Shown here: positions 8,483-19,658 of the stretch, one piece after another
Layout of the letters: the number at the start of each line of letters is the position of its first letter
Position numbering within the stretch: the stretch's first letter is position 1
Origin: Selenobaculum gibii
GTDB taxonomy: Bacteria; Bacillota; Negativicutes; ICN-92133
Reading direction: 5' to 3'
Assembly: GCF_030273445.1 (NCBI RefSeq)
Contig: NZ_CP120678.1
Location: 320,401 to 352,400 of the forward strand
Length of the DNA: 32,000 nt
Position numbers and translations under genes: made by a program
Notes under the pieces: model-generated
Databases searched by the model: none
Seen by the model: only the letters and a program-made list of their open reading frames with translations
Told to the model about the DNA's origin: nothing

Positions 8483-8494
8483 TTTAGAAAATTA

Positions 8495-8540
8495 GGATTC
8501 AGATGAAGTTGTAATTTTATCTGAATCCAAGTTTTTCTTT
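8495..8540 (+). terminator. Rho-independent terminator after tolC
   Basis: GGATTCAGAT (8495-8504) and ATCTGAATCC (8519-8528) form a perfect 10-bp stem with a 14-nt loop, followed by AAGTTTTTCTTT. Confidence 0.7.
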
Positions 8541-8566
8541 ATTTTCATGGATGTGTAAAGTTGAGA

Positions 8567-8593
8567 TAGGGATATTGTTAAACAATATCCCTA
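8567..8593. promoter_or_regulatory. Perfect 27-nt palindrome upstream of tamB (operator candidate or second hairpin)
   Basis: TAGGGATATTGTT-A-AACAATATCCCTA has 13-bp arms around one central base. TTGAGA (8561-8566) lies immediately 5' and TGATTTTT immediately 3'. Confidence 0.45.
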
Positions 8594-8684
8594 TGATTTT
8601 TAGATGGGAAAATTCTCTACAGGAAGTCTCTATTGCTGTGTAGAATCTTGTATTATTAACAGTAGTGACGATGGAGGAGAAATT

Positions 8685-11600
8685 ATGAGGCAAAGGTTAT
8701 TCGTTGCAGTTTTATTGGTAATTGCTTTAACCATAGGAGCTTGCTTTTGGTATATAAAAAGCCAGGCTTTTACGACTTCGGCTGCAAATGTAATAGCTGG
8801 AGAAATAACAAGAACATTAGATACGCGGGTGGATATAGCGTCAGTTACTGTAGACTCGCCGACGACGCTTGCGTTAACGAATGTTACAATACAAGATAAA
8901 ATGGGCACTGCTATTTTGGAAAGTGGGAGAATAGAGGTTTCTTTTAGTCCTTTAGCAGTACTTATGGGAGAATCTGTAGTTAAGAGTATTAGTCAAGTAG
9001 AAGTTGACTCCCCAGAAGTCAATTTAGTTCGTCGCAATAATCAAGAGTGGAATTACATGGACTTTATGAATAGTGACGAGAAAAGTGAGCTTGATTTTTA
9101 TGGGAAAGTTAAGTTTAGTCAGGCGATAATTAATGTGGAAATCGATAAAAAAAGATTGAAGCTAGAGGATATCAGCGGTAGTCTAGATTTAGCTAATCAG
9201 CCATCCATTCATTTTGATATTATAGCTAAACAAGCAGATGGAGATATCAAATTCAATGGAGTATGGGGTGGAAAAAACAAAGCAGTGAGTGTAGAAGCTA
9301 ATAATTTTACACTGGATAACTACTTAGAATTTTTGCCAGAAGAGTTTGCAATTCAGGTTAATAGTGGGAAGTTGACTTCTTTTAAAGCGACGGTAACAAG
9401 TGATGATAATGGAAATCTGAAGGTTAATGGCGAAGCATTATTGCTAGGTATAAGTTTAACTGTTGAGAAAACGGAGGTTGATCATATTGATGGATTCGTT
9501 TTATTCAATGAGTCTGAAATAAGAATTTTTAGCCGTGGGCAGATCGCTAAGCAGCCAATTGTACTAAAAGGAACTACAGATCTGAATATGATTGAGCCGA
9601 TGCTTAATCTAGAATTAAGTTCTAAATCGTTTGATGTTACTAAAGTGCTTGAAAATTTCCCCGTTAAAGGGACGTTTAATTTTGTTGCAAATATTCAGGG
9701 CAATTTTAAAGAACCTCTCATCACGGGCAATTTTTCATCAGAAGAACTCATCTATCAAGAGTATATTGCTCATAACGTTGTAGCAGATTTGCGATTTGGT
9801 GATGATGTTTTATATATTGATTCATTAACTACAGATTTGTGTGAGGGAAAGGCGAACATACAAGGCGAGTTCAATACAAAAACAGAAAAATATGGAATAA
9901 CGTTGATGGGGAAAAATATAAATCTCGATTTGTTGCCCGAATATAATCAAGGATTATCAGGTTATATGGATCTTGACGTTAGGGCAAAGGGACAGGGATT
10001 AAATGATATCAATAATGTAATTGTATCTGGCAAAACGACTGTTCATGATGGTTCGTATGCAGGTGTTAATTTTACTGGCGTTGATGCTGGATTTTATAAA
10101 GATGCTAATTATATCGCCGTAGATTATGTAAATGTAAATTTGCCACAAGGGCAAGTGACATTAACAGGGCAAATCAATGAGCAAAATATTAATCTTGTTA
10201 TGCAAGGAAATAATGTAGCTTTAGCACAATTTTTGCAAAATAGATCAGAATTTGATTTGAGCGGTAATGCATCTTTTCATGGAAATATAAGAGGGACACT
10301 TGAGGCCCCTACAGTTTTTGTAAATGTTTTAGCTGAAAATGGAAGTCTACTTTATCAGCCATATCAGAAATTGACGGGAATTTTGGAAAGTGACTTTGAA
10401 ACGATAAATATAAAAAATATTGAAATGACAGATGGAATAAGTACACATAAAGTTCAAGGGAGTATTGGTTTAAAAAATGAGAATCCTTTGAATTTGACGG
10501 TTGTTTCAACTCAGGCTAGAGCAGAAAATCTAATAAAAATCTTATTGCCGGGAGAGGATTTAACTGGAAATATTGATAATACAGTTGTTTTGCGTGGAAC
10601 GTTAGAGAATATTGATGCGGAAGGAAATATTTTCTTTAATGATGGAAGTTACAGGGGAATGCTGTTGCGTGAGGCGCACGGTAAGTATAAACGTAAAGAT
10701 GGGGTAACTTCTATTGAAGATTTCTCAATAAGTTCACCAAACTTGAATGTAAAAATAAGTGGATTGATTTCAGCGGGTAATGCGCTAGATTTTGATATTA
10801 TTGCTGATGATATTGATTTAGTTCAGCTTAAATTAAACTTACCATATAAGGCAGAAGGAAAAGCAAAATTTGTTGGTAAGTTAAAAGGTCATGTAGATAA
10901 TCCTAATTTTTATGGAACTTTAACGGCAGATCGCACTGTTTTTAATCAAAATGAATTGCGAAACATAAACGGAAAAATACGTTATGCAAATGATGAAATC
11001 GAACTGGACTCCTTTAACTTCATGCAAGGAGATGGAAGTTTTGATTTATCCGCAAACTTTAATTTATCAACCAAAAGGGTCCGTGGGGATTTGGTTGTAA
11101 AAAACTCTGATGTTGCTGGTCTGTTAGAAATTTTAAATGTAAAACAAGATTGGCTTTTCGGGAAATTAAATGGTGACATCCATCTAGAAGGAAGTACTGA
11201 AAAACCGAAAGTCAGAATCAATGGAACAATTGAAAATGGATTTTTAAAGAAATACCCACTAGATGATGTCTCCTTAGATGTTTTTGTTGATGGAAGAGTC
11301 ATTAATATTGAAAAGTTTTATGCAAAACAAGGACAAGGGATTCTTGTCGCAAAAGGGACAGCAGATTTAGATGGTGACCTTAACTTTGAAGTTGCAGGGC
11401 AGTCTATACACGCTGCTTTATTAACAGATCTAATGGATCTGGATATTGATACAAAAGGAACATTGGATTTTGGCAGCCAAGTATTTGGTACTGCTTCATC
11501 ACCGAAAGCAAATCTATCTATGGAGATTAAAGGTGGGGGAATTGGTGGAGCGACTTTTGATTCTTTATACGGTATGTGTACGCTAAATGAAGGAATTATT

Positions 11601-12959
11601 GATGTTCAACAGATATTGTTGACGAAAGGCGAATATAAAGCTAGTGCGTATGGTATTGTCCCATTGGCGGCATTAACAAAAACAGATAATGTTGATGTAA
11701 AAGAGCAAATGAATTTGAAAGTTTCATTAGATCAGGCCGATTTAAGTATTTTACCGTTTTTGACGAAAGAAATAGAATGGGGCAGGGGAAATACAAATGG
11801 AAATTTAGTTATCACAGGAAGTTTATTGCAACCGTTAATTAATGGAAACATTACCGTGAATGATGGGACTCTAAAATTGAAACATTTGGGGAAACCAATC
11901 CAAAAAATGGCGGTTGATATTCAATTTCTAAATGATAGAATAGATGTACAAACTTTTGATGGTGTTATGGGAGATGGATCTTATCAATTGCGTGGACGCG
12001 CTTTTATTGGTGCTAACGGGCTAAAAGATTATTCCCTCACTCTAAATTTAAATGATTTAGACATTGTGAATAAGTATTATACGGGTCCATTGAATGGTTT
12101 GCTATCATTAGAGGATGATAAAGGAGTTCCTAAAGTTGTCGGAAATGTCGATTTAGCAAATTGTACAGTTGATATACCGATGCTTCCGGATACAGAAGAT
12201 GGTTTTCCTAATGTGAAATTGGATGTTACTGTTAATGCAGGTAAAAAAGTTCGTCTTTATAACTCAATGTTATATGATATTTTAGTTGAAGGACATGCTA
12301 ATTTTAGTGGATCAACGCAGCATCCACGGGCATCGGGGGAATTTTCTGCAATTCGAGGCAATGTAAACTATTTAAAGACTTCGTTTAAAATTCGTGAAGG
12401 CACCGTGTTATTTAATCAAGCGGGTTCCTTTATTCCAAGTATTAGGCTAAGCTCTGATACGCAATTGCAACGAACAAAAATTTATTTGGATATAGATGGT
12501 CCTGTTTCAAATATGCAGGTCAAATTATATTCTAATCCAGAGTTAAGTGAACAAGAAATCTTATCGCTGCTTACTTTAAGAAGTGCTTATGACAGCAAAG
12601 AGGAATCTGGAATTGGTAAAGACGAGTTGAATGCAATTGTTAATCTAGGTCTAAGTGCAAGCTTTTTTAGTGAGTTAGAGAACATTGCAAAGAGTGCATT
12701 AGGTGTAGATGAGTTTAATGTTGTTAGGGATACTTTATCGTATACTGAAAATGGAAGTAATTATAATCGTGAAGTGTATAATTTAGAAATAGGTAAATAT
12801 GTTACAGATAAAATGATGCTAAAATATACTACAGGAATTGATCATGAAGACTATTACTTTGGTATACGATATGATTTTAGTAATAGAATTAGTTTTACAA
12901 GTGATATTGATCAAGATAATAATAAACGATTTGGTATTGAGGCTAGATTTAAATTCTAG
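8685..12959 (+). CDS. tamB: TamB / AsmA-like translocation and assembly module protein (DUF490 C-terminus)
   Basis: The start is reassigned to ATG 8685 (GGAGGAG at 8673-8679). It has an N-terminal TM anchor (LFVAVLLVIALTIGACFWYI). About 1400 aa of repetitive beta-rich sequence follow, with recurring 'G.l.g.l...G....P...G.i...' units. The TamB-type C-terminus reads LSEQEILSLLTLR...FGIEARFKF. Confidence 0.88.
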   Translation: MRQRLFVAVLLVIALTIGACFWYIKSQAFTTSAANVIAGEITRTLDTRVDIASVTVDSPTTLALTNVTIQDKMGTAILESGRIEVSFSPLAVLMGESVVKSISQVEVDSPEVNLVRRNNQEWNYMDFMNSDEKSELDFYGKVKFSQAIINVEIDKKRLKLEDISGSLDLANQPSIHFDIIAKQADGDIKFNGVWGGKNKAVSVEANNFTLDNYLEFLPEEFAIQVNSGKLTSFKATVTSDDNGNLKVNGEALLLGISLTVEKTEVDHIDGFVLFNESEIRIFSRGQIAKQPIVLKGTTDLNMIEPMLNLELSSKSFDVTKVLENFPVKGTFNFVANIQGNFKEPLITGNFSSEELIYQEYIAHNVVADLRFGDDVLYIDSLTTDLCEGKANIQGEFNTKTEKYGITLMGKNINLDLLPEYNQGLSGYMDLDVRAKGQGLNDINNVIVSGKTTVHDGSYAGVNFTGVDAGFYKDANYIAVDYVNVNLPQGQVTLTGQINEQNINLVMQGNNVALAQFLQNRSEFDLSGNASFHGNIRGTLEAPTVFVNVLAENGSLLYQPYQKLTGILESDFETINIKNIEMTDGISTHKVQGSIGLKNENPLNLTVVSTQARAENLIKILLPGEDLTGNIDNTVVLRGTLENIDAEGNIFFNDGSYRGMLLREAHGKYKRKDGVTSIEDFSISSPNLNVKISGLISAGNALDFDIIADDIDLVQLKLNLPYKAEGKAKFVGKLKGHVDNPNFYGTLTADRTVFNQNELRNINGKIRYANDEIELDSFNFMQGDGSFDLSANFNLSTKRVRGDLVVKNSDVAGLLEILNVKQDWLFGKLNGDIHLEGSTEKPKVRINGTIENGFLKKYPLDDVSLDVFVDGRVINIEKFYAKQGQGILVAKGTADLDGDLNFEVAGQSIHAALLTDLMDLDIDTKGTLDFGSQVFGTASSPKANLSMEIKGGGIGGATFDSLYGMCTLNEGIIDVQQILLTKGEYKASAYGIVPLAALTKTDNVDVKEQMNLKVSLDQADLSILPFLTKEIEWGRGNTNGNLVITGSLLQPLINGNITVNDGTLKLKHLGKPIQKMAVDIQFLNDRIDVQTFDGVMGDGSYQLRGRAFIGANGLKDYSLTLNLNDLDIVNKYYTGPLNGLLSLEDDKGVPKVVGNVDLANCTVDIPMLPDTEDGFPNVKLDVTVNAGKKVRLYNSMLYDILVEGHANFSGSTQHPRASGEFSAIRGNVNYLKTSFKIREGTVLFNQAGSFIPSIRLSSDTQLQRTKIYLDIDGPVSNMQVKLYSNPELSEQEILSLLTLRSAYDSKEESGIGKDELNAIVNLGLSASFFSELENIAKSALGVDEFNVVRDTLSYTENGSNYNREVYNLEIGKYVTDKMMLKYTTGIDHEDYYFGIRYDFSNRISFTSDIDQDNNKRFGIEARFKF

Positions 12960-12963
12960 CGGA

Positions 12964-13617
12964 ATGGATGAGAAGATGGATTTACGTAATTATTTAGAGG
13001 AATTAAATAAAATACGGCTATTAGAACAAGAGGAAGAACTAGAACTTTGGAAGAGCTATAAGCAGCAAAATGATTTGTCATCACGTGAATTATTAATATC
13101 TTCTTATCAGCCTTTGATATTTAAAGTAGTTACACAACTGCATTTAAATGACAGTCTTCTTATGGATGTTATTCAGGAAGGGACTGTCGGGTTGATTGAG
13201 GCGGTAGAACGCTATGAATATGAGCGAGGCGTAGCATTTAGTTTATATGCTACGCATCGTATTCGTGGAAGAATGTTGAATTTTATTCAGAAGGAATATA
13301 AGCGTAATTTGACTTATATTGACAATCCAATGTATAATGAGGATTGTGTTTTGGACTGGAGGGAGTCTTTAGTTGATGATGCCTTGCCAGTCTGTGAGCA
13401 AGTTGAAGATCATGTTCTTATGGAGCAGATAAAAAGTGCTGTAAGCCGCTTGCCGCGAAAAGAGCAGCTTGTCATTGATAGTGTTTATCTTAAGGAACAG
13501 GAAACGAAGACAATTGCCCAAAATATGGAGCTAAGTACTACTCATATTTATCGTTTGCAAAAGCAAGGGATACGTCGAATTCGTGGAATGCTATCAAAGT
13601 TTATGCAGCATTGGTAA
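12964..13617 (+). CDS. Sigma-70 family RNA polymerase sigma factor, group 3 (FliA/WhiG-like)
   Basis: Region 2 reads DVIQEGTVGLIEAVERYEYERGVAFSLYATHRIRGRMLNFI; the RIRG motif is typical of FliA/SigD-type sigmas. The region 4 HTH reads LPRKEQLVIDSVYLKEQETKTIAQNMELSTTHIYRLQKQGIRRIR. The ORF-track N-terminal extension (12838-12963) overlaps tamB and is rejected. The start is ATG 12964 or ATG 12976. Confidence 0.85.
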   Translation: MDEKMDLRNYLEELNKIRLLEQEEELELWKSYKQQNDLSSRELLISSYQPLIFKVVTQLHLNDSLLMDVIQEGTVGLIEAVERYEYERGVAFSLYATHRIRGRMLNFIQKEYKRNLTYIDNPMYNEDCVLDWRESLVDDALPVCEQVEDHVLMEQIKSAVSRLPRKEQLVIDSVYLKEQETKTIAQNMELSTTHIYRLQKQGIRRIRGMLSKFMQHW

Positions 13618-13780
13618 ATTGAAGATAAACGATGTAAATAGGTTATTTTTAAATGATATTTAATTAAAATGTTTAAATTTGACCTATTTTCTGCTTTTTT
13701 TTCATGAATTTATGAGTGGAAAAGACTGTCCTTATATTGATTGTATTTTATGTAGTGCGTAAAGAGGGCGGGGATGAGGT

Positions 13781-14371
13781 ATGACTGATTTAAAAAAGAA
13801 GTTAAAAGGTCATCTTTGTTCTGCTAGACATTGGTTAGGCAAGGCCGAAGAATCTCTTGAAAAAGATAGAGACATTCGTGCAGAGTTAAATCTAATGTTA
13901 GCGCAAGCAGAGATTACTCATGCGAAGGAAGTTAAGAGTGAAAGCAAAGATAGAAGAATAAATTATCGAGGTCTGCTGATTCGCAGTATACTTTTAATAG
14001 GGCTTATAAGTTTTGGGATAGTATCTGGTTTTGGTGGATTTATTGGGACTCAGCAGAAACTGTCTAATGAGTCACAGGAAATAGTGCCGAACTATAGGTC
14101 GACACTGTCGGAAGAAGTCCCTTTAAATGGACAAGTTGTACCTAAAATACAGGAAACTTCGTCGTTTGATTCTGGAGGACCTGATTTAGCGGGGCAACAT
14201 AATGAAATTGAATCGGCTAAAAAAATGCCGATGAAGCAAACGGTAGTTGTTGAAGAAACTATACCTAAAGCTGAGGCAAAGGTTTCGGTATCAGAACAGC
14301 CAGTACGGCTGCAACCGCGTGAAATGCAAGAATTGATTAGTGCGGCTGGAAAATCTTTACGTGGAGAATAA
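13781..14371 (+). CDS. Single-pass membrane protein of unknown function (RseA-like topology; candidate anti-sigma or BAM-associated factor)
   Basis: An RBS (GGGGATGAGG) precedes ATG 13781. About 64 aa of helical cytoplasmic N-terminus come first, then one TM helix (LLIRSILLIGLISFGIVSGFGGFIG), then ~105 aa of low-complexity periplasmic tail. No family was recognised. The gene ends 21 nt before bamA. Confidence 0.6.
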   Translation: MTDLKKKLKGHLCSARHWLGKAEESLEKDRDIRAELNLMLAQAEITHAKEVKSESKDRRINYRGLLIRSILLIGLISFGIVSGFGGFIGTQQKLSNESQEIVPNYRSTLSEEVPLNGQVVPKIQETSSFDSGGPDLAGQHNEIESAKKMPMKQTVVVEETIPKAEAKVSVSEQPVRLQPREMQELISAAGKSLRGE

Positions 14372-14392: not shown

Positions 14393-16171
14393 ATGAAAAT
14401 TAAATTAAATCATAGATGTATTTTATGTGCCTTGATGCTAACGACAAGTTTTGTAACTGTAAATTTACCTATAACGTTTGCTGAATCTAACCCTCAGGTT
14501 GCAAATGAAGCTCCGGCTCCAGCAGCAAATGAATTGATTGGTAAACCGGTTACAAGTGTAATTATTCAAGGGGTAAATAGCGAAGATTCTGTAGGGCTAA
14601 TGGAGTTATTGAATACGAAAGTTGGCGATTCACTAACTGAGGAAGCTGTAAAAAATGATATGAAAGCACTTTATGATACAGGGAATTTTATTGATGTATC
14701 AACTGATTTTGTTAGAGTTCCAGAGGGTGTAAAAGTTGTTTATACAGCAATGGAGAATCCTATATTAGATCGTGTTGTGATTACGGGGAATGTTAAGTTT
14801 GATGAAAGCAAAATTTTAAGTTTCATTAAAGTTGAGCCAGGCAAAACTTTAAATACAAAAACTTTACATGAAAACATCCGTGAGCTTGAACAAGCTTATC
14901 GTGAGGAAGGTTATATTTTTAGTAAGGTAAGCAATGTTGATATGAGTAAAGACGGTGTTTTAACATTATCAATTAACGAAGGAATATTAGAGGGATTTGC
15001 TGTTAAAGGAAATGAAAAAACAAAAGATTATGTTATTACACGAGAAATGCGTTTAAAGCCAGGTGAACCTTTTAATGCAAAAGATGCTCGCCGTAGTATG
15101 CAACGTGTTTACAATTTAGGATTTTTTGATGATGTAAATATGAAAATTAATCCTGGTGTTGAACCAAATGCTGTAGTACTGGAAACCGATGTTGTGGAGC
15201 GCCGTACGGGAACTTTTGCAATTGGTGGCGGTTACAGTCAAAGTGATGGTTTAATTGGGATTATTGAAGTCGGGGATACTAACTTCCGCGGCACTGGTGA
15301 TAACGCGAAAATCCATTGGGAGTTTGGCGGTGATGCAGATAGTTATGACAACTATGAATTTAGCTATACGCGTCCATGGATTGACAAAAAGGAAACGAGT
15401 GCTGGAATTAGAATTTATGATATGACAAAAGAGTTTGATGATTACGATAATGGCGGCGAGAGAGTTGCAACGTATGATAAAAACTATAAAGGAATTGATT
15501 TGTTCTTTAGTCGTCCAATGAGTGAATATTCGACAAACAGTGTAACACTTAGATATCGTGATGATGCTTATGTTGAATGGGTTGACGGTAGACATTACGA
15601 TGATGCAACCTTATATCCAAACTATTTAGATGATAACTTTGGTAATACGCGTAGTATTATTTTAGGACACGTTACAGATACACGTGATAATGTGTATAAT
15701 CCAACAGATGGTGCCAGAGCCTCTTTGCAAGCTGAGTTTGCTGGCTGGCTTGGCGGTGATTTTGATTATAATAAATATACGTTTGAAGATCGTCACTACT
15801 TTAAAGTTGGTCGAAACCATGTTATTGCTACACGTGGAACTATTGGTTTAGCCGATGGATCGATGCCGGAAAGCGCGCTCTTCTCTGTTGGTGGACAGAG
15901 TACTTTGCGTGGCTATGAAGATAGACAGTTTGAAGGGAAATATATGCTTTTAGGAAGTGTTGAATATCGATTCCCAGTTGTGAATAAAATACAGGCTGCC
16001 GTATTTACTGATTTTGGTGGTGCTTGGGAAAATAAATACGATTTCTCTGATATGCATGCCAGTGTTGGTGTAGGGATACAGGTTGAAACTCCAATTGGAC
16101 CAATTCGCCTTGATTATGGACGAGGTGAAGATGGTGGTAAAACACACTTTACTTTTGGGGGTAATTTCTAG
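14393..16171 (+). CDS. bamA: Outer membrane protein assembly factor BamA (Omp85), three POTRA domains
   Basis: RBS AGGAGG. Signal peptide ...NLPITFA/ES. Three POTRA-like repeats begin VTSVIIQGVN, LDRVVITGNV and LEGFAVKGNE. The Omp85 barrel runs from RTGTFAIGGGYS, with LRGYE and VFTDFGGAW motifs and a C-terminal ...THFTFGGNF. Confidence 0.92.
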   Translation: MKIKLNHRCILCALMLTTSFVTVNLPITFAESNPQVANEAPAPAANELIGKPVTSVIIQGVNSEDSVGLMELLNTKVGDSLTEEAVKNDMKALYDTGNFIDVSTDFVRVPEGVKVVYTAMENPILDRVVITGNVKFDESKILSFIKVEPGKTLNTKTLHENIRELEQAYREEGYIFSKVSNVDMSKDGVLTLSINEGILEGFAVKGNEKTKDYVITREMRLKPGEPFNAKDARRSMQRVYNLGFFDDVNMKINPGVEPNAVVLETDVVERRTGTFAIGGGYSQSDGLIGIIEVGDTNFRGTGDNAKIHWEFGGDADSYDNYEFSYTRPWIDKKETSAGIRIYDMTKEFDDYDNGGERVATYDKNYKGIDLFFSRPMSEYSTNSVTLRYRDDAYVEWVDGRHYDDATLYPNYLDDNFGNTRSIILGHVTDTRDNVYNPTDGARASLQAEFAGWLGGDFDYNKYTFEDRHYFKVGRNHVIATRGTIGLADGSMPESALFSVGGQSTLRGYEDRQFEGKYMLLGSVEYRFPVVNKIQAAVFTDFGGAWENKYDFSDMHASVGVGIQVETPIGPIRLDYGRGEDGGKTHFTFGGNF

Positions 16172-16201: not shown

Positions 16202-17512
16202 GTGATCATAATTGTAAGGAAAATAATAGCTCAAATTTTTTATGTTTGTTTTATCATGCTATCAGCAGTTGCCGTTGTGTCAGCTGCTGATAGTGCAAGT
16301 GTTATAGAGACAATCGAAGTACAGGTTATACCCTTACAAGAAGAGCATCCTATTTCAGATAAAATTGCTAGACGAATGCAAGCTAGTGTTTATACTATTG
16401 GGGACAATGTATTAAATGGGCATAGAGTAGAGGAAATTGAAAATAATAAATTAGGTTATGAAGTTTTAATACAGGATGTTTTTAATCGAATTTTGATTGG
16501 CTACTCTGTACAAAAAGTCAATTTGGAAATTGGTAATCATACAGTGATAAAAGTCATGGTATTTCCTTGGCATAATGTGATTCATAATGTTAATGTTGAT
16601 GTTGAAATAAATGGAGTAAGTGAAGATATTAAACCGTTAATTATGCAAGATATACAAGGAATTGAGAAAATCTTTTTGAATGTATTGCAAGAGTTACCTA
16701 TTGACGCAGTAGAATGGGTAAATGGGATATTAAGGACAGGGCTAAATGAATTTTTATCTAGTCGTATTCCAGAGTTTAATGCATCTTTTACTCTTGTTGC
16801 TGATGAAAACAATAGAGTGGATATAAAAGTTGATTTATATCCTAAAGGACAATTGATCCGAGAGACCAATTTACAAATAAAGTCTGGTACAATTCCGAAT
16901 ACGATCAGGCTAATGTTTCGTCCAGAATTAAATAAGCAACTTGAAGGTTTAGTTGGTTTACCGGTAAGGTTTGTTCAACGACATCAAAGCTATTTTATTG
17001 ATAAATTAAATTCAGTTACTTTTGATAATAAAAATTTACAAAAGTATAAAGTCAAATCAGCGGTTGAAATGGTTGCTGATCATCAAACGCAAGTTTTGTA
17101 TACGATGGACAGCAGTGAGTATATTTTAACAGTTGAAGGATATTTAGATGTTGGCAAGGAGGAACGCAATACCTCTATTAAAGCGCATGCAGGAAGAATG
17201 TTAGACAAAGAAAATGAGTTGTTTTTAGAAATGGATTTTTTCCCGCATCAAATGGAATGGGATTTTTATCCGGGTATTTTGCATAGCCTTACGTCAAAAA
17301 CTAAAATTGGATTTAAATATGACATTGATGAGCGTAGAGGAATTCTTTTGGCGAATCAGATACTCAGCGATCGATTTTCAGCTAGAGTAGAACATGTGCC
17401 AAGCATCCAATTTACTGAGTTTGGGCTCAGATATCATTTGCATGATTTTTTTGATGTGGAATATGTAATTAATGATGATGAAAAATGGCTTAGGCTAATT
17501 GGAGTTTTATAA
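16202..17512 (+). CDS. Secreted protein of unknown function between bamA and skp
   Basis: 436-aa ORF. From GTG 16202 the N-terminus is a signal peptide (MIIIVRKIIAQIFYVCFIMLSAVAVVSA/ADS). No convincing RBS is present, so the start is uncertain (next candidate ATG 16256). The sequence is beta-rich with amphipathic strands near the C-terminus (KIGFKYDI, FSARVEH, FGLRYHL, FDVEYVI). No family was recognised. Confidence 0.65.
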   Translation: MIIIVRKIIAQIFYVCFIMLSAVAVVSAADSASVIETIEVQVIPLQEEHPISDKIARRMQASVYTIGDNVLNGHRVEEIENNKLGYEVLIQDVFNRILIGYSVQKVNLEIGNHTVIKVMVFPWHNVIHNVNVDVEINGVSEDIKPLIMQDIQGIEKIFLNVLQELPIDAVEWVNGILRTGLNEFLSSRIPEFNASFTLVADENNRVDIKVDLYPKGQLIRETNLQIKSGTIPNTIRLMFRPELNKQLEGLVGLPVRFVQRHQSYFIDKLNSVTFDNKNLQKYKVKSAVEMVADHQTQVLYTMDSSEYILTVEGYLDVGKEERNTSIKAHAGRMLDKENELFLEMDFFPHQMEWDFYPGILHSLTSKTKIGFKYDIDERRGILLANQILSDRFSARVEHVPSIQFTEFGLRYHLHDFFDVEYVINDDEKWLRLIGVL

Positions 17513-17552: not shown

Positions 17553-17581
17553 TTGTATAATGAAAACGGGTTTGATATAAT
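17553..17581 (+). promoter_or_regulatory. Candidate extended -10 promoter for the skp paralog array
   Basis: TTGTAT (17553-17558), a 17-nt spacer, then TGaTATAAT (17573-17581), a perfect extended -10. It lies about 80 nt upstream of ATG 17661. Confidence 0.55.
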
Positions 17582-17660
17582 AAATTATGCTTTTGGCCTA
17601 TTGGCAAAGCAATTTAAATTTCATATTTTATGCCTTGAAGGGCAGGAGGAGAATCTTAGA

Positions 17661-18128
17661 ATGATTAAATTTGAGAAAAAACAGATTAAATTTATTAGCA
17701 TCGGTATTGCTTTGGTTTTTGTTTTTAGTGTGGTTGCTCTTGCAGTATCCCAGTCTTCTGTAGGATTTGCCGCAGCAGGCAATTCTTCGAATGTTGGTGT
17801 AGTAAATCATCAACTACTTGTGTCCCAGCATCCTGACATGGCAACTGCTAAAACTGCAATGGAAGCTGAAGTTGAACAAGCAAAAAAAGATTTTGAAACA
17901 AAATCTGCAAATATGAATGACCAAGAAAAACAAGCTTATTATCAACAAACACAACAACGTTTGGCGAATAAAGAAAGAGAATTGATTGCTCCTATTTTTG
18001 ATAAAGTAGATGCAGCAATCAAAGCAGTTGCTGAAGCTAAAGGATTATCTGTTGTTTTAGATAAAGGCACTGTTGTTTATGGTGGACAAGATATTACAGA
18101 TGAAGTTGTAAAAAAGTTTTCTAAATAA
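17661..18128 (+). CDS. skp: Periplasmic chaperone Skp/OmpH family, paralog 1 (cleavable signal peptide type)
   Basis: The start is reassigned to ATG 17661 (AGGAGGAG at 17644-17651). It has a signal peptide/hydrophobic segment ending SVGFAAAG. OmpH pattern: VGVVNHQLLVSQHP...coiled coil...AKGLSVVLDKGTVVYGGQDITDEVVKKF. Confidence 0.85.
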   Translation: MIKFEKKQIKFISIGIALVFVFSVVALAVSQSSVGFAAAGNSSNVGVVNHQLLVSQHPDMATAKTAMEAEVEQAKKDFETKSANMNDQEKQAYYQQTQQRLANKERELIAPIFDKVDAAIKAVAEAKGLSVVLDKGTVVYGGQDITDEVVKKFSK

Positions 18129-18159
18129 TTAATGGTAATAAAATAAAATTTAGAGTTTA

Positions 18160-18187
18160 TGCCGAGCTGGGGAGACCTCGCTCGGCA
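18160..18187 (+). other. Stem-loop between skp paralogs 1 and 2 (weak attenuator/processing site candidate)
   Basis: TGCCGAGC (18160-18167) and GCTCGGCA (18180-18187) form a perfect 8-bp stem with a 12-nt loop. Only a weak ATTTATT tract follows. Confidence 0.3.
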
Positions 18188-18209
18188 ATTTATTAGAAAG
18201 GGTGGGCAG

Positions 18210-19169
18210 ATGGAAAAGCGTAAATGGATGATCGTTGCTTTAATTGCTATAGTTGCTTTTGGGGTAGTAGGTTATGCTGTATCCTTACAATCGAATAAGA
18301 ATTCGACAAAACCTGATGCGCAAGCGGTTGAGAATCAGACCGATATTGGTGTTATTGATATGAGTCAAGTCCTTAAAGCTCACCCGAAATATGGTCAAAC
18401 TATAGAGTTGCAAAAAGAGCTAAATACACTTAAGGCAGAAATTGATAATAAATTGAATTTTATCAATCATCAAGCTATGCCGAATTCTATTGCAGTTGAC
18501 GAGAAAGCAATTTTATCGTCGCAAAACCAACTTGGACAACAACAGCTTATTGCTAAACATGCAGAGCTCAATGAAAAGCTACAAAAAAAAGAAGATGAAT
18601 TACGGCAGAATTTTAATGAGCAAATGAACAAAGATGTAGCGGTTATTGATGAAGAATATATGCCTGAAATTTTTAATTTAAAGTTAAAAATGAAAACTTT
18701 GCAGATGACGGAAGATGCTTTTAATCAGATGCAAGCAAAGATTAATGAGTTGCAAGAGGCTCGCAATAAGAAAGTCCATGAAAAACAGCAGCAGTATTTA
18801 AGTCAGCTTGGGGAACAGATGAAGGCTGAGCAACTGAAAGCAACAGAAGAGTTTAACCTTTTTGCGCAGCAAGTTGAAAAAGAAAATAAAGAATTTAGCA
18901 GTCAAAAAACAGCAGGCTTAACTGAGCGTAACAATAATGTGGAGAATCAAGGAAATGAAAGCGTTGCTCAAATTGCAGAATTAAAACAGCAAGTTGCAGA
19001 CAAAGAAGTTGAATTACAAAAAATTCAGAATGAAATTCTTGATGAAGCGACAAGTCTCGTTGCTAAAGTTGCGTTAGAAAATAATCTATCAGTGGTTATT
19101 AATAAGGTGAAAGTTAATATTAATGGATTAGATATTACTGATTTGGTAATTCAAGGGTTTAACAAATAA
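18210..19169 (+). CDS. Skp/OmpH-family protein, paralog 2: membrane-anchored with about double-length coiled coil
   Basis: The start is reassigned to ATG 18210. It has an N-terminal TM helix (WMIVALIAIVAFGVVGYAV). The OmpH N-motif is IGVIDMSQVLKAHPKYG and the C-motif is ENNLSVVINKVKVNINGLDITDLVIQGF. These are separated by ~230 aa of Q/E/K-rich helical sequence, against ~100 aa in the flanking paralogs. Confidence 0.75.
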   Translation: MEKRKWMIVALIAIVAFGVVGYAVSLQSNKNSTKPDAQAVENQTDIGVIDMSQVLKAHPKYGQTIELQKELNTLKAEIDNKLNFINHQAMPNSIAVDEKAILSSQNQLGQQQLIAKHAELNEKLQKKEDELRQNFNEQMNKDVAVIDEEYMPEIFNLKLKMKTLQMTEDAFNQMQAKINELQEARNKKVHEKQQQYLSQLGEQMKAEQLKATEEFNLFAQQVEKENKEFSSQKTAGLTERNNNVENQGNESVAQIAELKQQVADKEVELQKIQNEILDEATSLVAKVALENNLSVVINKVKVNINGLDITDLVIQGFNK

Positions 19170-19232
19170 ATAAAACGTATATAATAATTAAATATAAATA
19201 AATTTTTTATGGATAGAAATGGAGATGGAATA

Positions 19233-19658
19233 ATGAACTTACATTTAAAACGTTTATTATTATTAGTTGTAGTTGTTATTATGGCTGTTTTTATTGGGGG
19301 ATGCTCAAATGAAAAAGTCGGTGTCGTTGATGGCAGTAAAATTTCCGATACCCCAAAAATTCAAGAAATGCAAAAGGATTTACAAGCAAAATTAGATGAA
19401 AAAGCAAAAGAGTTGTCTACGCAACTTGAGCAAGAAAAGGCTAACCTTAGCCCAGAAGATTATCAAAAACGTTATGTATCACTTCGCACGGAATTTAATA
19501 CGCTACAAGAGTCTTATCAAAAAGATATTTTAAATGCTGTAAATGAAGCGATTTCTGCTGTTGCAAAAGAAAAGAGTATTTCTACAGTGTTATACAAAGA
19601 CGCGGTAGTACATGGCGGAATTGATATCACAGATGATGTCGTGAAAAAATTACAGTAA
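19233..19658 (+). CDS. Skp/OmpH-family protein, paralog 3: predicted lipoprotein
   Basis: The start is reassigned to ATG 19233 (GGAG at 19221-19224). The lipoprotein signal has a lipobox (LLLLVVVVIMAVFIGG/C). OmpH pattern: VGVVDGSKI...coiled coil...EKSISTVLYKDAVVHGGIDITDDVVKKL. Confidence 0.8.
   Translation: MNLHLKRLLLLVVVVIMAVFIGGCSNEKVGVVDGSKISDTPKIQEMQKDLQAKLDEKAKELSTQLEQEKANLSPEDYQKRYVSLRTEFNTLQESYQKDILNAVNEAISAVAKEKSISTVLYKDAVVHGGIDITDDVVKKLQ

Follow-up and report, generated by a model that had tools for sequence, protein, structure and literature searches.

A sigma factor gene inherited with sonB and sonA around bamA in Negativicutes: a possible regulatory module for outer-membrane protein assembly

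In Escherichia coli, the alternative sigma factor sigma-E (RpoE) and the membrane protein RseA are tied to bamA, skp and the assembly of outer-membrane proteins (OMPs). How Firmicutes came to keep or lose an outer membrane (OM) is studied chiefly in Negativicutes, a class for whose OM biogenesis we know of no described regulator. Here we describe an unnamed sigma-70-family factor (hereafter sigma) of Selenobaculum gibii, whose gene lies between tamB and sonB, ahead of bamA, in a stretch of 32,000 nucleotides of contig NZ_CP120678.1 (the window). The genome consists of one 2.68-Mb contig, and the species is the sole member of its own family in the genome collection. There is slightly less than an even chance that sigma, SonB and SonA together make up a regulatory module for OMP assembly that is specific to the Negativicutes lineage; in this module, sigma and SonB would act as a sigma/anti-sigma pair tuning the bamA operon.

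The genes flanking bamA were named in Acetonema longum, sonB upstream and sonA downstream, in a study (PMC13018214; Nat Commun 2026) that reported that Negativicutes other than Veillonella parvula and Acidaminococcus fermentans share the sonB-bamA-sonA-skp1 synteny, predicted a promoter shared by these four genes and attributed a 10-stranded barrel and three POTRA domains to A. longum SonA. The same study noted that Negativicutes are without the BamB-E lipoproteins and the Lol pathway. The window agrees with the A. longum system in the gene order around bamA, in the predicted transmembrane (TM) helix of SonB and in the position of SonA after bamA. It departs from the published account in the sigma factor, since the text of PMC13018214 contains the word "sigma" 0 times, and our full-text literature searches found no paper tying a sigma factor to a tamB-bamA cluster. 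A sequence-only reading of the window had drawn attention to sigma and to the membrane protein encoded ahead of bamA, and had hypothesised a dedicated OM-biogenesis or envelope-stress sigma/anti-sigma module of diderm Firmicutes.

Gene order and co-inheritance around bamA

The window is an OM gene cluster of a Negativicute with every gene on the + strand, in the order mlaD, tolC, tamB, the sigma open reading frame (ORF), a 163-nt gap, sonB, bamA, sonA, three skp paralogues and lpxD. The sigma ORF (217 aa, 12964..13617) begins with an ATG at 12964, shortly after the tamB stop at 12959. It is followed by the gap (13618-13780), which contains a run of eight T residues (T8, 13695-13702), and then by a 196-aa ORF (13781..14371), the end of which leaves 21 nt before the bamA start at 14393. 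The coordinates and distances stated in the sequence-only reading hold to the base. By position and family, we assign the 196-aa ORF as SonB and the 436-aa ORF that follows bamA (16202..17512) as SonA, which is the third member of the co-inherited set.

Of 20 loci from related genomes, 19 are long enough to show the order tamB-sigma-sonB-bamA and all 19 have it; the remaining one (L020) ends within the sigma gene. The full order tolC-tamB-sigma-sonB-bamA-sonA-skp was present in 80/80 loci from named Negativicutes, which belong to Selenomonas, Sporomusa, Pelosinus, Megamonas, Mitsuokella, Propionispira, Lucifera and Dendrosporobacter, among other genera. The sole deviations were cuts at contig ends and one locus without a tblastn match to SonB, and Skp1 was syntenic in 65 of the 80. 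The sequence-only reading had made its proposal depend on synteny with bamA and tamB in relatives, and in these loci that synteny is maintained.

Presence and absence of the three genes also go together. Of 41 genomes, the same 36 have sigma, SonB and SonA, one of the 36 having its sigma gene cut by a contig end. The co-occurrence profile envisaged by the sequence-only reading was run within Negativicutes, in a class-level survey of 201 genomes, each at least 90% complete. Sigma was found in 165 of these, with one orthologue each, and SonA in 166, and the tallies per family and per genus were identical except for one fragmented assembly of 450 contigs. The gaps in the triad fall in five families, including one genus at 0/16. 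Eight genomes lacking the triad, drawn from four families, had tamB-bamA-skp instead (bamA-skp where the locus was cut short), and therefore the genes on both sides of bamA were lost together. No other result argues as strongly as this joint loss and retention for a dependence of the three genes on one another; since related genomes are not independent, no p-value is attached to the co-occurrence. The patchy distribution agrees with the absences from V. parvula and A. fermentans reported previously (PMC13018214). Universal synteny and genome-by-genome co-occurrence thus uphold the part of the module hypothesis by which these genes are not chance neighbours, but its attribution to diderm Firmicutes was too broad, as the module is seen in Negativicutes only and 36 of the 201 Negativicutes are without it.

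A longer BamA in triad-less genomes was considered and rejected: BamA is not longer there, as triad-bearing genomes too have lengths of 572 to 845 aa. In the window, bamA (14393..16171) encodes an Omp85 protein with three POTRA domains (Pfam Omp85, 9.2e-49; POTRA, three matches), and the three skp/ompH paralogues, identified as ORFs, occupy 17553..19658. A full Negativicutes-type tamB-sigma-sonB-bamA locus, with a sigma 52% identical to that of the window, was also found on DATMYQ010000350.1 (L074), labelled "Patescibacteria group bacterium", which is probably a mis-binned contig.

Family and structure of the sigma factor

Sigma matches the Pfam domains Sigma70_r2 (residues 44-111, E 2.7e-15) and Sigma70_r4 (residues 160-207, E 5e-06). 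Its region 2.3/2.4 reads YATHRIRGRM, in which R99, R101, G102 and R103 are invariant, and the RIRG motif at residues 99-102 is the same in all orthologues. The readable regions 2 and 4 and the RIRG motif that had been pointed out from the letters are therefore borne out by Pfam and by the orthologue alignment. The FliA-type pattern YA..RIRG is present in sigma, and the corresponding stretch of the genome's own FliA is YAGVRIRGAI. Because most orthologues begin at the residue matching M5 (ATG at 12976), the protein may be of 213 rather than 217 aa.

Among the NCBIfam models, only the generic one (TIGR02937), which covers the whole sigma-70 family, scored above its cut-off (94.3 against 42.9). 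Against the more specific models sigma scored 79.7 bits for FliA_WhiG (TIGR02479; cut-off 189.6) and 84.3 for FliA (NF005413; cut-off 201), matching in two separate stretches, and 80 bits for RpoH (cut-off 323). The true FliA of this genome scores 258.4 and 232.8 with the two FliA models. In a maximum-likelihood tree of the sigma orthologues, the genome's own paralogues and 20 paralogues from six other genomes, the sigma orthologues formed a clade of their own (support 96/98) and FliA formed a separate one (99/99), while a loose grouping of these two with a clade of ~190-aa proteins was weak (87/68) and carries a long-branch warning. The phylogenetic placement suggested in the sequence-only reading thus puts sigma outside bona fide FliA, which the genome encodes separately.

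In the AlphaFold2 model (mean predicted local distance difference test score, pLDDT, 79.9), sigma has a sigma-2 domain (residues 7-112) joined by a disordered linker (116-138; pLDDT <50) to a sigma-4 domain (143-216). There is no sigma-3 domain, only ~48 residues lying between r2 and r4, and this corresponds to the two-domain sigma-2/sigma-4 plan with a short linker that is seen in extracytoplasmic function (ECF) factors. A match to r1_2 was weak (E 0.0066; 16.8 bits, cut-off 22), and the model has an N-terminal helix at residues 7-15. Sigma matches PF04545 and not PF08281, although some orthologues do carry PF08281. The nearest solved relatives by sequence are FliA and WhiG (6pmi, FliA, E 7.9e-24; 6pfv/6pfj; 1rp3), and the top structural match is the SigD model 9a7s of Bacillus subtilis.

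From the scores below the cut-offs, the lack of sigma-3, the separate clade and the relatedness to FliA and WhiG, we conclude that sigma is a FliA-derived two-domain sigma factor of its own kind and not a group-3 FliA. It shares with FliA, WhiG and SigD (sigma-28) the best solved-structure matches and the YA.HRIRG motif of region 2, and differs from them in scoring far below their cut-offs, in its missing sigma-3 domain, in its separate clade and in coexisting with a true FliA. Of the description "group-3 FliA-like" that had been given to it, the FliA-like part holds for region 2 only; the "group 3" label is doubtful because sigma-3 is absent from this two-domain protein, which stays under all FliA cut-offs.

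The database names of the orthologues are inconsistent ("sigma-70 family", "sporulation-specific", "sigma-E", "fliA"), and some of them would suit the proposal that sigma is a second flagellar FliA or a sporulation or germination factor that stands in the OM cluster by chance. The best partial matches to FliA and WhiG, and the rise of BamA, SonA and SonB during A. longum germination (PMC13018214), would be in line with this. However, the data fit such a role poorly and we consider it very improbable, since sigma reaches only 79.7 against a cut-off of 189.6 where the genome's own FliA reaches 258, lies in a separate clade and lacks sigma-3. Furthermore, sigma is found in Mitsuokella and Megamonas, which are non-sporulating, non-motile genera. 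Nor was any link of SonA and SonB to sporulation ability found in A. longum's study (PMC13018214).

The genome also encodes SigE, SigF, SigG and SigH, all confirmed by NCBIfam, and a 375-aa ORF resembling SigA. Outside the window, a SigK-like ORF of 124 aa (C1:819416-819790) spans regions 1.2-2 only; an inserted element may interrupt the gene, as in B. subtilis sigK, or the gene may be broken. No specific NCBIfam family is reached by two other sigma-70-like ORFs outside the window (C1:1675286-1676188, 300 aa, and C1:2318782-2319345, 187 aa), the shorter of which joins, in the tree, the conserved clade of ~190-aa proteins from other Negativicutes.

SonB and the layout of the transcription units

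The assignment of the 196-aa protein to the SonB of A. longum (F7NM24) rests on its place directly upstream of bamA in the sonB-bamA-sonA-skp1 synteny and on its TM helix. Homologues from Sporomusa, Pelosinus and other Sporomusaceae are clearly related to the protein of the window. The family has 821 representatives at 50% identity, of which the best 150 listed are ~140-235 aa long, have one architecture and nearly all match end to end. Every named member belongs to Negativicutes and bears a hypothetical-protein annotation.

SonB is made up of a two-helix hairpin (the N-domain, residues ~1-60, 13781..13960), a basic stretch, one TM helix (residues 70-88, 13988..14044), a non-conserved, disordered linker of ~80 residues rich in Pro, Ala and Gln, and a C-terminal helix (residues 179-193, 14315..14359). 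The AlphaFold2 model has helices at residues 2-27 and 31-96, disorder at 97-178 and a helix at 179-193. The pLDDT is ~78-85 for helices 2-27 and 31 onward, with block means of 88-97 for residues 61-90 and 94 for residues 181-190. The 19-residue window of peak hydrophobicity is 70-88, and in 51 orthologues there are 4.3 K+R per 15 residues before the TM helix versus 1.0 after it. Because of this enrichment ahead of the helix, SonB is predicted to be a single-pass N-in protein with a cytoplasmic N-terminus. AlphaFold2, hydropathy and the charge counts are thus in accord with the RseA-like topology proposed from the letters, namely a helical cytoplasmic N-domain, one TM helix and a periplasmic tail.

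The N-domain is the most conserved part of SonB, with W18, A22, A41, A43 and E44 invariant in 51 sequences, and distant orthologues align over residues ~10-85 only. Conservation is also found in the C-terminal helix, where the motif P..EMQ.L...AGK.LRG contains the invariant A189 and L193 and the nearly invariant G190 and R194. SonB was described previously (PMC13018214) as a predicted OM lipoprotein in the abstract and as a TM-helix protein in the results, and was listed among small beta-barrels in the discussion. In contrast to the abstract, an N-terminal signal peptide is absent from the 51 sequences and a lipobox is not conserved among them: only 6/51 have a lipobox-like tetrad, at residue ~67-74 and hence within the TM helix, which is preceded by a conserved hydrophilic region of ~64 residues. 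This suggests that SonB is a bitopic inner-membrane protein facing the cytoplasm, the 51 sequences fitting this prediction only and not an OM lipoprotein.

The sequence-only reading had cautioned that the sigma and sonB genes may not be co-transcribed, and the comparison with relatives bears this caution out. The median distance is 22 nt from the tamB stop to the sigma start (77 loci) and 30 nt from the sonB stop to the bamA start (74 loci). The sigma-sonB gap is ~140-450 nt in relatives (at least 139 nt), three values of 12-49 nt being due to mis-assigned sonB starts. Because this gap, a T-run and a separate promoter-like element are all conserved, sigma and sonB are placed in separate transcription units. 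The first would start with tamB (8604..12959; Pfam TamB, 1.9e-48) and end with sigma, and the second would have sonB as its first gene, bamA as its second and sonA as its third, and continue into the skp paralogues.

In the window, an AU-rich hairpin (13636-13689; RNA fold z -2.1) is followed by the T8 run, the whole element occupying 13636..13702. A simple terminator scan made no call at this place. Across 74 loci the T-run is conserved at -42..-39 relative to the promoter core, in several of them behind a GC hairpin. The conserved T-run is terminator-like, and the hairpin with T8 is likely the terminator of the tamB-sigma transcript.

The promoter-like element of the sonB-bamA operon (13719..13745) consists of GAAAA (13719-13723), a 15-nt spacer and GATTGTA (13739-13745), 42 nt before the sonB start codon. 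Of 82 distinct intergenic tails that exceed 100 nt, 74 contain the core GAnTrTA, at 11-66 nt (mostly 30-50) upstream of sonB. When the 74 loci are aligned on this core, an A-rich block appears at -20..-16, "CC" at -22/-21, and a T-run followed by GCC at -42..-36. The A-rich block, the 15 nt and the GA-containing -10 resemble the promoter spacing of sigma-28, the consensus of which is TAAA-N15-GCCGATAA. In two triad-less genomes with a tamB-bamA gap (n=2), this gap contains an extended -10 of the TGnTA type and no GAnTrTA. At one triad-less locus, L151 (G025:C9), a strong terminator hairpin and the extended -10 TGGTATACT come after tamB, so that bamA there looks like an ordinary sigma-A-driven gene. 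The sigma-sonB gap of some Sporomusales-type loci (L004-L006 and L023) is extended to 250-450 nt by extra GC-rich palindromic repeats (for example, CCGCAGAGTACGCAGAGG...CCTCTGCGTACTCTGCGG), which look like REP-type intergenic repeats.

Regarding autoregulation, no GAnTrTA-like motif was found upstream of tamB, the leader of which (window 8483-8700) contains only ACAGGAAG, a sequence conserved across many related loci. The same leader holds a perfect 27-nt palindrome (8567-8593) that was also noticed in the sequence-only reading. The relatives of TamB align only from query residue ~24-28, compared with the listed ORF start at 8604. Because of this, and because GGAGGTGA precedes M28, the true start of tamB is probably M28 at 8685.

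The regulatory reading and its alternatives

From the gene order, co-inheritance, topology, domain conservation, separate-unit layout and conserved promoter-like element, we infer that SonB may bind sigma, that sigma may read the promoter of the sonB operon and that a signal may pass between them and OMP assembly. In this scheme, sigma would be made from the tamB transcript, which would end at the terminator just past the sigma gene. The dedicated promoter (A-rich -35-like block, 15 nt, GAnTrTA) would drive sonB-bamA-sonA-skp and be read by sigma. SonB would be the membrane-anchored partner and probable anti-sigma factor of sigma. From its anchor in the inner membrane, it would keep sigma inactive through the conserved two-helix domain on the cytoplasmic side, and its disordered periplasmic linker and C-terminal helix would reach the OM machinery (SonA and/or the POTRA domains of BamA). 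When assembly capacity falls short, SonB would release sigma or be degraded. Transcription of bamA, sonA, skp and sonB would then rise, newly made SonB completing a loop of negative feedback.

Such a scheme has the same two kinds of component as RpoE and RseA, an alternative sigma factor and a single-pass N-in inner-membrane protein, and the topology of SonB matches that of RseA. It differs from that system in that sigma is not an ECF factor and is closest to FliA/WhiG in region 2, in that SonB is without RseA_N or any other anti-sigma domain, in that sigma and sonB lie in separate units, and in that an RseB, DegS or RseP partner is not evident beside sigma or sonB. In favour of the scheme, the anti-sigma factors of FliA and WhiG, FlgM and RsiG, are small helical proteins as well; the putative partner of sigma differs from these in being membrane-anchored and not a soluble secreted protein.

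Several results weigh against a sigma/anti-sigma pair. The anti-sigma gene co-transcribed directly downstream that typifies ECF factors is not found for sigma, and unlike most sigma/anti-sigma pairs, sigma and SonB are not co-transcribed. SonB itself has no profile match in Pfam, NCBIfam or PDB, none of 51 family members matches an anti-sigma family of Pfam (RseA_N, zf-HC2, RskA, RsgI_N class) at E <=1, and Foldseek returned generic helical hairpins only (E >0.3), with no specific fold match. Family and fold matches (Pfam, PDB profile, Foldseek) therefore give no support to the anti-sigma role that the sequence-only reading had proposed, and its caveat about the zinc-binding anti-sigma (ZAS) motif was well placed, HxxxCxxC being absent from this protein, which has one Cys. 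A mirror-tree test of distance correlation (63 taxa, controlled for TamB and BamA distances) gave a partial r of 0.45 (p ~0.0005) for sigma and SonA, and a weak partial r of 0.12 (permutation p ~0.03) for sigma and the SonB N-domain. These correlations appear suggestive at most, and because the N-domain has only 52 residues, the sigma-SonB signal would speak neither for nor against binding.

Some of these results would seem to favour a different role for SonB, in which sigma drives the sonB-bamA-sonA-skp promoter or other OM genes and SonB is a structural accessory of BAM/SonA, not an anti-sigma factor. SonB would then be an inner-membrane anchor with its C-terminal helix docking at the POTRA domains, and the genes would travel together since the sole task of sigma would be that operon. 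Synteny and co-occurrence fit this equally well; the lack of an anti-sigma family or fold match, the weak distance correlation with the N-domain and the transcription of sonB with bamA and not with sigma all point the same way, and PMC13018214 treats SonB as an OM biogenesis factor. However, a purely periplasmic role leaves unexplained why the ~50-residue cytoplasmic domain is the most conserved part of SonB, and an unregulated dedicated sigma factor for a single operon would be unusual. We regard the accessory role, the main alternative, as somewhat unlikely.

Against the regulatory reading must also be set the reach of the promoter motif. When 73 related promoters were turned into a position weight matrix and the S. 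gibii genome was scanned with it, the window site scored 5.2 bits only and the top matches were unrelated or intragenic, so that the scan was uninformative. Across 41 genomes, the exact form AATCTGGCC-N9-GAnTrTA occurred once per genome, at sonB, and revealed no wider regulon; allowing two mismatches gave about twice the number of sites found with a reversed-pattern control, without a link to particular genes. Of the shared promoter motif ahead of OM genes that the sequence-only reading had proposed to search for, the strict form is at sonB only, and no regulon could be defined. Moreover, the promoter is assigned from conservation, and it may instead be an extended -10-like promoter of sigma-A. 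The regulon of sigma could accordingly be unrelated to its neighbours (for example, general stress or growth phase), with sigma riding on the tamB transcript and the sonB promoter being read by sigma-A. The empty regulon scans of own and related genomes, the only moderate conservation of the -35-like block and the presence of TATAAT-like sequences near the ribosome-binding site in many Sporomusales-type loci would agree with this. But TATAAT is missing in the window and in several clades, whereas GAnTrTA is nearly universal, the gap in the window has no sigma-70 consensus promoter, and it is hard to see, without a functional tie, why sigma should be lost along with sonA, beyond bamA, in five families. 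An unrelated regulon therefore fits the data poorly and is distinctly unlikely.

To return to sigma and SonB as a regulatory pair, a more specific and rather unlikely version is a trans-envelope chain, running from SonA/BamA, which would report how OMP assembly stands, to the C-terminal helix of SonB and on to the hairpin, which would free sigma to set the amounts of bamA, sonA and skp, and having arisen independently of sigma-E/RseA and of FecI/FecR/FecA. The likeness to the Fec system is by analogy only: three co-inherited parts would lie in three compartments (sigma, the bitopic SonB and the SonA barrel). No part is homologous, SonA being a POTRA-barrel and not a TonB-dependent transducer, and the periplasmic part of SonB being a disordered linker with a short helix and not a folded FecR domain. 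If this chain were true, its anti-sigma domain would belong to a new class, and no circuit for envelope homeostasis would have been described before it in two-membraned Firmicutes.

The joint retention and loss of sigma, SonB and SonA suggests an unstudied control circuit for the building of the OM. The genetic model V. parvula is reported to be without SonA and SonB (PMC13018214), and this, together with the lack of the whole set in the 16-species genus at 0/16, may explain why the sigma factor went unnoticed. The view of SonB as an inner-membrane protein facing the cytoplasm would change how its function should be approached. A dedicated sigma factor beside bamA, always inherited with SonA and SonB, would offer a handle on how Negativicutes sense and adjust the assembly of their OMPs.

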